64,000 nucleotides of DNA from Escherichia phage vB_EcoM-E33. The translations under genes and the position numbers were made by a program. The notes below the pieces were generated by a model. That model was given only the letters and a program-made list of their open reading frames with translations, was not told the DNA's origin and made no database searches. This document shows positions 27,899 through 29,280 of this stretch, in pieces. The DNA lies in sequence record OL780484.1; one strand, 5' to 3'. Position 1 is the stretch's first letter. The number at the start of each line of letters is the position of its first letter.

Positions 27899-28244
27899 GC
27901 CTAGTAAAACCGACCCTGGTTACGCATTAGCAGATTACGATATCTCTATTTCATTATTCCTCGGCATTGCTACTAGTATGACTGCAGGGATAATTGGATT
28001 TCTTGTCGGTGGGATTATTAATGGTATGCCTCGCCATCCGTTTGAAGATATGAGCCTCGCGTGGATTTGGGTTCCGGCTTTAATAGGATTTTTTATCCCA
28101 TGGGTCTTTGATATTGCCCAAACTAATAAAATAAACAAGCCACGTAAAAAGAGATATGCTTTAGCTATGGCTAATTATAATGAGTATGTAAAACAAACTA
28201 AACGTAATGACCTTGAAACCTTTATTAAGGAATGTAAATCATGA
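27891..28244 (+). CDS. small membrane protein (two predicted transmembrane helices)
   Basis: ATG 27891 overlaps the upstream gene end; hydrophobic segments ISLFLGIATSMTAGIIGFLVGGII and LAWIWVPALIGFFIPWVF. Confidence 0.55.
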   Translation: MHKPSKTDPGYALADYDISISLFLGIATSMTAGIIGFLVGGIINGMPRHPFEDMSLAWIWVPALIGFFIPWVFDIAQTNKINKPRKKRYALAMANYNEYVKQTKRNDLETFIKECKS

Positions 28245-28531
28245 ATAAAATTGAAATTGAAATCCCGGAACACAATGACGAGAAATCTGCAGAAAAGGCT
28301 ATCTATGCTCTTCTGAATAAAGTGAATACCATCGAACATGAATGTGAAGCTATTGCCGATAAGTATGGTATCCAATTCGGTACTGGTGATTATGGTTCAG
28401 GCCGTACATATTATCCTGTCGGTTATGAATGCTCCCAGTGGTTTAAAGATGAAATTGAAAACAACGGTGGTGAAGTTGAAAATGGCGTCGTTACAGTTGG
28501 TGCTTGGATCTCCTCTTCGGCAATGTGCTAA
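28241..28531 (+). CDS. small acidic protein, C-terminal W-x-SSS-x-x-C family, paralog 1
   Basis: ATGA overlap with the upstream stop; ends ...GAWISSSAMC; followed by conserved junction tgctaaggaaat. Confidence 0.6.
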   Translation: MNKIEIEIPEHNDEKSAEKAIYALLNKVNTIEHECEAIADKYGIQFGTGDYGSGRTYYPVGYECSQWFKDEIENNGGEVENGVVTVGAWISSSAMC

Positions 28532-28540
28532 GGAAATTTT

Positions 28541-28822
28541 ATGATGAATGATTACCATAAAAATAAAGAATTGGCTGAAGCAGTAAATGATATCCATAAA
28601 GCTATTCGTCGTGCCGAGGAAATTGCAAACAAATATGAGACTCATTTTAATATATACCCTGCTCGCGGTATGGGCGGTGACTATTATTCTCCTGGCGCCT
28701 TGAAAGCCGACCTTGCCCACTGGGAAGAATACGGTGAAGCTCAGTACGCTATTGTAAACCAACATGATTACACTACCAGCCTAGAAAATGGTGGTTGGGT
28801 GTCCTCTTCTTCTGAATGTTAA
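28541..28822 (+). CDS. small acidic protein, same family, paralog 2
   Basis: Ends ...GGWVSSSSEC; same stop/SD junction tgttaaggaaat. Confidence 0.6.
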   Translation: MMNDYHKNKELAEAVNDIHKAIRRAEEIANKYETHFNIYPARGMGGDYYSPGALKADLAHWEEYGEAQYAIVNQHDYTTSLENGGWVSSSSEC

Positions 28823-28831
28823 GGAAATAAA

Positions 28832-29044
28832 ATGACTATTGATGAAATTGAAAACCAAATCCGTGAATTAGTACGTAAAGGCCAGTCTGTGGCTGACGAA
28901 ACGGGTGAAGAGTTCCGTGTTTCTGGTCGTGGAGAATACATTTCTCCAAAGAACCCGGAATATGATGATTACGAATGGGTCCGTGATGACTACGGTATTC
29001 CGGAAGGTGAAGGTTTCTGGTTTACATCCTCTATGTCTTGCTAA
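28832..29044 (+). CDS. small acidic protein, same family, paralog 3
   Basis: Ends ...GFWFTSSMSC; junction tgctaaggtgat. Confidence 0.6.
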   Translation: MTIDEIENQIRELVRKGQSVADETGEEFRVSGRGEYISPKNPEYDDYEWVRDDYGIPEGEGFWFTSSMSC

Positions 29045-29055
29045 GGTGATAAAAA

Positions 29056-29280
29056 ATGTCTGATATTAATGAATTAGAAAAAGCTGCACTTGAACTGGCT
29101 GCACTGTATAAGAAAGTAAAAGATATGGCTTCTGCTCAAAGTTTTGGTGTTGAGCTCGACGATTATGACGGTGAAGTTCGTCTCGAAGATTGGCTGAATA
29201 GCTCGTGTTATGGCGAAGAAGCTGGTCGCACCTTCGTTGCTCAGGCCGATGGTAAAATCTGGTATCCGAGCTCATGCTAA
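29056..29280 (+). CDS. small acidic protein, same family, paralog 4
   Basis: Ends ...KIWYPSSC. Confidence 0.6.
   Translation: MSDINELEKAALELAALYKKVKDMASAQSFGVELDDYDGEVRLEDWLNSSCYGEEAGRTFVAQADGKIWYPSSC

Follow-up and report, generated by a model that had tools for sequence, protein, structure and literature searches.

What do four consecutive small genes, whose acidic products all end in a cysteine-terminated tail, do for the phage that carries them? The genes belong to Escherichia phage vB_EcoM-E33 (sequence record OL780484.1) and lie in a 64,000-nucleotide stretch of one strand that, as a whole, we call the window. A first-pass annotation, made from the letters of the window alone, had drawn attention to the array and suggested that the final cysteine is a functional or modified residue. 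Here, we find that the array belongs to a phage family whose members are accompanied, with few exceptions, by a downstream gene encoding a nucleotidyltransferase (NTase)-like protein. Judged from gene content, this near-obligate linkage is a new finding that extends beyond the coordinates of that annotation. Our tentative answer to the opening question is that the NTase may modify the tails of the small proteins.

The window is a segment of a Dhakavirus genome, with 99.9% identity to Escherichia phage WG01 across 2.1 kb. The array occupies the hyperplastic transfer RNA (tRNA)-e region, flanked by e.6-/e.3-like genes and nudix/lysozyme genes. Its four open reading frames (ORFs) and the partner gene are as follows (aa, amino acids; pI, isoelectric point):

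28241-28531, plus strand: paralog 1 (ORF1), 96 aa, pI 4.4, ending GAWISSSAMC
28541-28822, plus strand: paralog 2 (ORF2), 93 aa, pI 5.0, ending GGWVSSSSEC
28832-29044, plus strand: paralog 3 (ORF3), 70 aa, pI 4.2, ending GFWFTSSMSC
29056-29280, plus strand: paralog 4 (ORF4), short-tail class, 74 aa, pI 4.2, ending KIWYPSSC
30164-31123, plus strand: partner NTase-like gene, 319 aa, Pfam DUF7277 and DUF7275, phrog_2141

All four ORFs match phrog_899 (function unknown) at profile positions ~133-221, with expectation (E) values running from 2.8e-23 for ORF1 through 2.4e-20 for ORF2 and 6.2e-14 for ORF3 to 1.4e-9 for ORF4. Compared with orthologs in related loci, the ratio of nonsynonymous to synonymous substitutions (dN/dS) is 0.14-0.25 for ORF1, 0.17-0.31 for ORF2, 0.18-0.32 for ORF3, and 0.03-0.16 for ORF4. 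Because these values all fall within 0.03-0.32, the four are real genes. On this comparative evidence, they are genuine genes under purifying selection and members of one phage family. The first-pass description of them was accurate: four ORFs of 96, 93, 70, and 74 codons with Cys-terminal tails match the sequence exactly, Gly/Tyr-rich segments can be seen, acidity holds for all four proteins (pI 4.2-5.0, net charge -7 to -10; family median pI 4.4), and the N-terminal helix appears in an AlphaFold2 model of ORF1 at residues 14-42.

The strongest clue to function comes from the company the family keeps. The NTase profile retrieved 80 viral loci, and 72 of them carry 1-6 small-family genes recognizable by hidden Markov model (HMM), every one of them upstream of the NTase gene and on the same strand. 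Eight loci give no HMM match; three of these possess divergent, motif-bearing copies, likewise upstream and on the same strand, bringing the total to 75 of 80. When 21 NTase clades (<60% identity) were compared, the small family proved to be the sole co-travelling gene family. Pseudomonas phage phiPsa397 (Otagovirus) and coliphage Schickermooser (Phapecoctavirus) harbor four and three small-family copies, respectively, all upstream and on the same strand. In both JS09 (Mosigvirus) and Aeromonas phage 25, the small genes are followed by an NTase homolog. The phage 25 pair resides in another neighborhood, adjoining nrdD, and the phiPsa397 module adjoins ribonucleotide reductase (RNR) genes. In nine phages present in both tblastn lists (NC-G, RZ, Kosakonia 305, FL18, FL31, CHI14, Moon, 31, and CC2), the NTase gene lies 0.3-2 kb downstream of a small gene on the same strand. 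Scanning bacterial genomes with the NTase profile recovered five contigs of metagenome-assembled genomes, all five with the module; these contigs are probably phage. A scan of bacterial genomes with a single NTase sequence found nothing. Phage T4 lacks both the small family and the NTase. By guilt-by-association, there is a strong case that the small family and the NTase constitute a two-component module.

Could the two genes be neighbors through shared regulation or co-inheritance alone? The small proteins would then be independent host-takeover or anti-defense factors, a role that the first-pass annotation noted as frequent among small acidic phage proteins; they could, for instance, mimic nucleic acids or inhibit enzymes of the host. 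The strong acidity of the family, its predicted early/middle expression, its location in a hyperplastic region, and the existence of one locus with the enzyme and without small genes (L027) would all suit such factors. Yet the linkage is kept across Straboviridae, Otagovirus, Phapecoctavirus, and jumbo-phage contigs, in varied neighborhoods where nothing else co-travels; T4 lacks both components together; and no structural similarity to Ocr/Arn-type mimics or to named viral proteins was found. We regard independence as improbable.

What, then, is conserved in the small proteins? An iterative HMM search of all ORFs in the fetched loci yielded 196 family members, 168 of them unique, from ~90 loci. 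Cys is the last residue in 163 of the 168, preceded by a Trp at position -7 or -5 and by a Ser at W+3 that never varies. Two classes of tail can be distinguished: a long class, W-h-[S/A]-S(100%)-S(95%)-x-x-C, with 109 unique tails, and a short class, W-x-x-S(100%)-[S/N]-C, with 33, the W+3 serine being invariant in both. In a 61-sequence family alignment with a mean column identity of 23%, the only invariant columns are the W, the Ser at W+3, and the last Cys. The tails in the window are W89-I-S-S-S-A-M-C96 of ORF1 (28505-28528), W-V-S-S-S-S-E-C of ORF2 (28796-28819), W-F-T-S-S-M-S-C of ORF3 (29018-29041), and W-Y-P-S-S-C of ORF4 (29260-29277). The motif is not confined to the terminus. A second, internal W-x-x-S-x-C followed by YGE[E/G] occurs in 28 of the 168 unique members, among them ORF4, whose internal copy, D-W-L-N-S-S-C-YGEE (residues 46-51, 29191-29208), is seen throughout its subfamily. 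Family member P0236 possesses three copies. The motif behaves like a portable recognition site, judging from these repeats. We infer that the tail is the functional center of these small proteins, and a functional or modified tail residue is still the most attractive idea.

One concern is that the tail could be conserved not for the sake of the protein but for overlapping nucleotide signals that serve the next gene, such as its Shine-Dalgarno sequence or promoter. Stop/Shine-Dalgarno junctions of the form TGC/TGT-TAA-GG(A/T)... are indeed found between the window copies, and the repetition of TAA-GGA there is what such an artifact would produce. Codon usage refutes this account. The tail serines are encoded by TCN 265 times and by AGY 130 times, the tail cysteines by TGC 97 times and by TGT 43 times, all three stop codons are used, and the post-stop hexamers are diverse. 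Moreover, internal copies of the motif exist, and the final gene of each array, too, ends in it. Because Ser and Cys codons are mixed, and stops and post-stop bases vary, the tail is conserved in protein and not in nucleotides; on the codon evidence, its conservation is at the protein level. In the window, TAA-GGA amounts to no more than the ribosome-binding site (Shine-Dalgarno sequence) of the next gene. The first-pass annotation had itself raised overlapping signals as an explanation of the conservation; the mixed codons and varied post-stop bases exclude it, and we assign the artifact a negligible probability.

The same annotation took the conserved junction as a sign of tandem duplication. 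The junctions are present, but any duplication is not recent. The window paralogs share only 23-25% identity (pairwise BLAST E values of 1e-4 to 0.1), and orthologs can be assigned to each without ambiguity, down to 30-38% identity, in 41, 30, 22, and 34 loci for ORF1 to ORF4, respectively. These two observations rule out recent tandem duplication. At most one copy of each paralog type is present per locus, and three of the four types extend to jumbo-phage contigs. By these sequence comparisons, the four paralogs are ancient, and each has been retained individually.

Defining the breadth of the family requires some care. Its proteins are short and divergent, E values in very large databases are therefore weak, and family size is better estimated from linked loci. 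An HMMER scan of 1.84 billion representatives returned 21 matches, of which three long ones (P0220, P0229, and P0232) are unrelated repeat proteins, so that domain fusions are absent from the set. Nor is this a characterized T4 accessory family: a six-frame ORF scan of the whole T4 genome revealed no ORF with the tail. The only small-family HMM matches in T4 were sub-threshold, to tk.1 and 49.3 (~16 bits), and both were rejected as members given their weak scores and the lack of a tail. The window itself contains a gp49.3 homolog (51347-51724, plus strand) that ends ...FEVSSWWC(DR/EK) and gives a sub-threshold small-family HMM match of 12-16 bits; this likeness is probably chance. Several GenBank records, MK295203 (vB_EcoM_005), vB_KpnM-VAC36, MT150133, and OR842557, have shifted labels on the small genes and the NTase gene, namely "prohead assembly scaffold protein," "major capsid protein," and "tail completion protein." These look like annotation-transfer errors.

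A structural model places the tail in context. In the AlphaFold2 model of ORF1, built on a 70-sequence family alignment (predicted local distance difference test score, pLDDT, 91.2), the long N-terminal helix (14-42, 29 residues) packs on a small beta-sheet, and a second helix spans residues 66-74. The last beta-strand contains W89, and the chain closes with a short turn, S92-C96, whose lower pLDDT (~78) is consistent with a solvent-accessible tail. A Foldseek search of the model against BFVD retrieved family members only, all "uncharacterized," and the predicted fold had no PDB or named viral neighbor. Searches of the small proteins against Pfam, NCBIfam, PADLOC, and PDB sequences gave nothing above noise, and a Pfam scan of the N-terminal extensions of longer members (147-172 aa) was uninformative. 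Comparison with named groups of small proteins gave the same picture. No homology to antitoxin families (AbiEi/COG5340-type, MenA1, MenA2) was found, nor the beta-grasp fold and C-terminal Gly-Gly of the ubiquitin-like sulfur carriers ThiS, MoaD, and TtuB. Unlike precursors of lanthipeptide-type RiPPs (ribosomally synthesized and post-translationally modified peptides), the small proteins have a conserved C-terminal motif rather than a variable core, and no dehydratase or cyclase co-travels in the 21 clades. The strong negative charge of the anti-restriction DNA mimics Ocr, Arn, and ArdA is seen here too (pI 4.2-5.0), but neither PDB entries nor named viral proteins proved structurally similar, and T4 Arn falls outside the family. 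As modeled, the small proteins are a family without a detectable relative.

The partner is easier to place. The NTase gene lies ~0.9 kb downstream of the array, and its product, which begins MMLVIGSRAL...SDWDFI, matches DUF7277 and DUF7275 in Pfam with E values of 5e-27 and 4e-77, respectively. Motifs I (G6-S7), II (D25-x-D27), and III (E69), which are the pol-beta NTase triad, are conserved in a 30-sequence alignment. The fold of the AlphaFold2 model (pLDDT 90.9) is nearest those of the MenT/AbiEii toxins and the ANT/Lnu antibiotic NTases, and the protein combines the pol-beta fold with motifs I (hG[GS]), II ([DE]h[DE]h), and III (h[DE]h) of the DUF1814/MenT/AbiEii toxins. A Pfam scan at E<=1 returned DUF7275 and DUF7277 only, not DUF1814; PADLOC gave no match at E<=1, and a PDB profile search at E<=10 gave no MenT chain. 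Taking model and motifs together, the protein is an NTase-fold enzyme akin to MenT/AbiEii that stands outside that family at the sequence level. With its motifs intact, it is apparently active.

The helical C-terminal domain of the enzyme (DUF7275) is extremely conserved: KVCTSITSGWFR is identical in 108 of 120 homologs, and the domain bearing it contains invariant His, Asp, and Cys residues. No convincing structural match to this domain was found. In KVCTSITSGWFR, a distance of 7 residues separates Cys from Trp, mirroring the W...C spacing in the long tail of the small proteins; this may be coincidence. The NTase family comprises ~1,920 protein-database clusters and 733 phage records. Its range covers T4-like phages of Enterobacteria, Aeromonas, Acinetobacter, and Pseudomonas, rV5-like coliphages, Otagovirus, and jumbo phages. 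No T4 ORF matches the NTase HMM at E<=10. This includes nrdC.3 (308 aa), a suspected homolog because its position is syntenic with that of the phage 25 NTase gene; lacking an HMM match, it was rejected.

How might such an enzyme and such tails work together? NTase-fold enzymes that act on protein hydroxyls include GlnD, GlnE, MntA, DrrA, and CitX. Within the closest structural family, MenT auto-phosphorylation demonstrates that a phosphate can be put on a protein Ser/Thr hydroxyl, in that case in the active site (PMC11375011). The reading we favor, with a confidence that stays somewhat short of even, is that the NTase modifies the invariant Ser of the exposed small-protein tails. The notion is that the NTase would recognize the W-x-x-S-S-(x-x)-Cys-COOH tail and move a nucleotidyl (or phosphoryl or nucleotide-derived) group to the Ser at W+3, beside the terminal Cys. 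A single enzyme could, in this manner, mature or switch several non-redundant small effector or carrier proteins made early or midway in infection. A physical interaction between the NTase and the small proteins, the Ser as acceptor, and a role in host takeover or counter-defense are all elements that we infer. Such an enzyme-substrate relationship would account for the tail, and not the helix, being invariant, for the repetition of the motif within one protein, and for the presence of several ancient paralogs per enzyme gene. Indeed, several distinct single-copy paralog types plus one enzyme gene resemble multi-substrate/one-modifier layouts.

Several observations weigh against tail modification. 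Nucleotidylylation of Ser alone leaves the invariant terminal Cys unexplained, and the nearest structural relatives of the enzyme, the MenT toxins, act on tRNA 3' ends and not on proteins. Four related loci of one clade (L055, L056, L060, and L079) hold only a divergent opposite-strand candidate. Locus L027 (IMGVR_UViG_650627040_000001) has the NTase and no small gene within 6 kb (upstream of 5557). Distant, truncated NTase homologs (25-33% identity) occur without the small family in Gordonia, Streptomyces, and Vibrio nt-1 phages. Finally, neither the 120 NTase homologs nor the scan of 1.84 billion proteins contained a fusion of the small family with the NTase.

Some of these exceptional loci have features of their own. 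The candidate in the four related loci is a 65-aa ORF at ~11.4 kb, on the minus strand and ~5 kb downstream, that ends ...ESWWESSEEYWDDSGC; this could be a family member that has diverged very far. In L027, nucleotide synteny with its relative L028 begins exactly past the array position, and this breakpoint indicates recombinational replacement of the array. Shorter DUF7275 homologs (~31-33% identity) lie near a tRNA cluster in Gordonia phage Cucurbita (L085) and near an RNA ligase gene in Streptomyces phage Blueeyedbeauty (L086).

The kinship of the enzyme to toxins raises a different possibility: the small proteins could be antitoxin-like regulators. They would bind a MenT/AbiEii-like effector, for example a modifier of tRNA 3' ends, through their long helix, with the tail as a pseudo-substrate, and would inhibit it or time its activity, as MenA1 does with MenT1. 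The small genes precede the NTase gene as antitoxin genes precede toxin genes in operons, and the 29-residue N-terminal helix predicted by AlphaFold2 supplies the required element. However, an inhibitor of one enzyme needs no 2-6 ancient, separately conserved paralog types per genome; conservation peaks in the tail, not in the helix; other genes often intervene between the small genes and the NTase gene; and neither DUF1814/AbiEii nor AbiEi models show sequence similarity here (DUF7277/DUF7275 being the only Pfam matches, with none in PADLOC). An inhibitory role is, in our estimation, unlikely, although it deserves to be kept in view.

In a further arrangement, the small proteins would act with the NTase, rather than being acted on by it, as adaptor or carrier subunits; the third substrate could be tRNA or some other nucleic acid, or else a small molecule. 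They could be specificity adaptors, or thiol/persulfide-type carriers that use the terminal Cys, and the paralogs would represent different specificities or parts of a hetero-oligomer. The presence of one copy per paralog type per genome is what non-redundant subunits would show, the terminal Cys is invariant and exposed, and the enzyme's structural relatives have tRNA or small molecules as substrates. The module is, in addition, often near tRNA or RNA-repair genes (the tRNA-e region here; tRNA clusters or RNA ligase near distant homologs). That proximity is nonetheless not conserved, given nrdD in the Aeromonas phages and RNR genes in phiPsa397, and a copy number of 1-6 is hard to fit to a fixed hetero-oligomer. 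We consider shared catalysis of this type rather doubtful.

If the enzyme does modify the tails, a more ambitious version can be formulated. We speculate that the module is a new phage protein-maturation system in which a MenT-fold NTase O-nucleotidylylates the invariant tail Ser on several folded small proteins, giving covalently modified effectors that many large lytic phages would use for host takeover or counter-defense. The product could be a nucleotide-derived prosthetic group beside a free thiol, that is, a carrier-protein-like cofactor, or the Ser could be converted to dehydroalanine and crosslinked to the Cys. In this specific form, the proposal is a long shot.

When would the module act? 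Features around the array bear on this issue:

27855-28244, plus strand: e.3-like predicted membrane-protein gene
28154-28181, plus strand: putative T4-type middle (MotA-dependent) promoter, a consensus match with MotA box TGCTTTA and TATAAT
29274-29501, plus strand: phrog_7065 gene, 75 aa, pI 10, its ATG overlapping the last codons of ORF4
29511-29861, plus strand: phrog_9796 gene, 116 aa, between the array and the NTase gene
29905-30144, plus strand: phrog_3723 gene, 79 aa, between the array and the NTase gene

The putative middle promoter lies inside the 3' end of the e.3-like gene, ~60 nt before ORF1, and is the sole regular-expression match in 25-33 kb. The MotA-type site is conserved in Dhakavirus loci and is found upstream of the array in 11 of 75 loci versus ~1.2 expected. 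Within 25-33 kb, the late promoter TATAAATA does not occur on the plus strand. This arrangement of sites predicts early/middle expression and a non-structural role for the array. The e.3-like gene and ORF1 share an ATGA overlap at the ORF1 start (28241), which suggests translational coupling, and the e.3-to-array junction recurs in JS09 (L003, 3133-3492 / 3489). Of the three genes between the array and the NTase gene, only the 79-aa one is common to JS09, and none co-travels across clades.

Both components of the module have been catalogued only as unnamed families (PHROG 899; Pfam DUF7277/DUF7275; PHROG 2141), and nothing on these genes emerged from the literature, whether searched by DUF name, by RB69 and Aeromonas-phage locus tag, or by combinations of keywords. 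Since T4 lacks the module, classical genetics never met it. Arrays with an invariant Ser-Ser...Cys that travel with an enzyme gene turn two "hypothetical" families into a testable enzyme-modifies-tail hypothesis. Many phages that carry the NTase family are therapeutic candidates.

How does the module compare with known systems? Arrays of precursor genes beside one modifying enzyme are familiar from RiPP loci, for example the ProcA/ProcM lanthipeptides. Like those, the phage module has tandem small genes upstream of a single enzyme gene, and Ser and Cys are invariant at the site of interest. Unlike those, the phage products are folded proteins of 70-100 aa with a C-terminal motif that is conserved and not hypervariable, the Ser-Cys spacing varies between the two tail classes, and no LanB/LanM/LanC-like or radical-SAM gene co-travels.

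Addition of a nucleotide-derived group to a small protein has a precedent in CitX-CitD and MdcG-MdcC (Enzyme Commission numbers 2.7.7.61/66), in which an NTase-class enzyme puts a nucleotide-derived prosthetic group on a Ser of a small (~100 aa), acidic carrier encoded nearby. In the phage module, by contrast, no sequence or structure match to these proteins was found, and no CitG-like biosynthetic gene co-travels. Moreover, the modified Ser of CitD is N-terminal, whereas the phage candidate Ser is in a Cys-terminated tail.

In MntA-HepT (MNT/HEPN), GlnD-PII, GlnE-GS, and DrrA-Rab1, a pol-beta-fold NTase acts on a specific protein, and a side-chain hydroxyl is nucleotidylylated. The substrates of such protein-modifying NTases are often small (PII has 112 aa), and the known acceptors are Tyr. 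The phage module differs in that the candidate acceptor is Ser and the putative substrates are unrelated in fold. Furthermore, these four systems are not known to have several paralogous substrates per enzyme, as proposed for the phage module.

A further comparison is with MenAT/AbiE, the pairs of DUF1814 NTases with MenA/AbiEi. The phage module is found in lytic phages and not in cellular toxin-antitoxin loci. Its NTase shows no DUF1814/AbiEii sequence match and has a C-terminal DUF7275 domain without counterpart, and its partners, unrelated to MenA/AbiEi, belong to a multi-paralog family in which the terminus W-x-x-S-S-x-x-Cys is invariant. What the two share is the enzyme core and the layout: the phage NTase has motifs I-III and, with them, the Ser of motif I, the residue on which MenT accepts phosphate; the small partner gene or genes lie upstream; and the partner has a long alpha-helix, as does MenA1. 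Were the NTase protein- or tRNA-directed, MenT/AbiE-type chemistry, familiar from bacterial toxin-antitoxin systems and abortive infection, would be extended to the phage side of the conflict.

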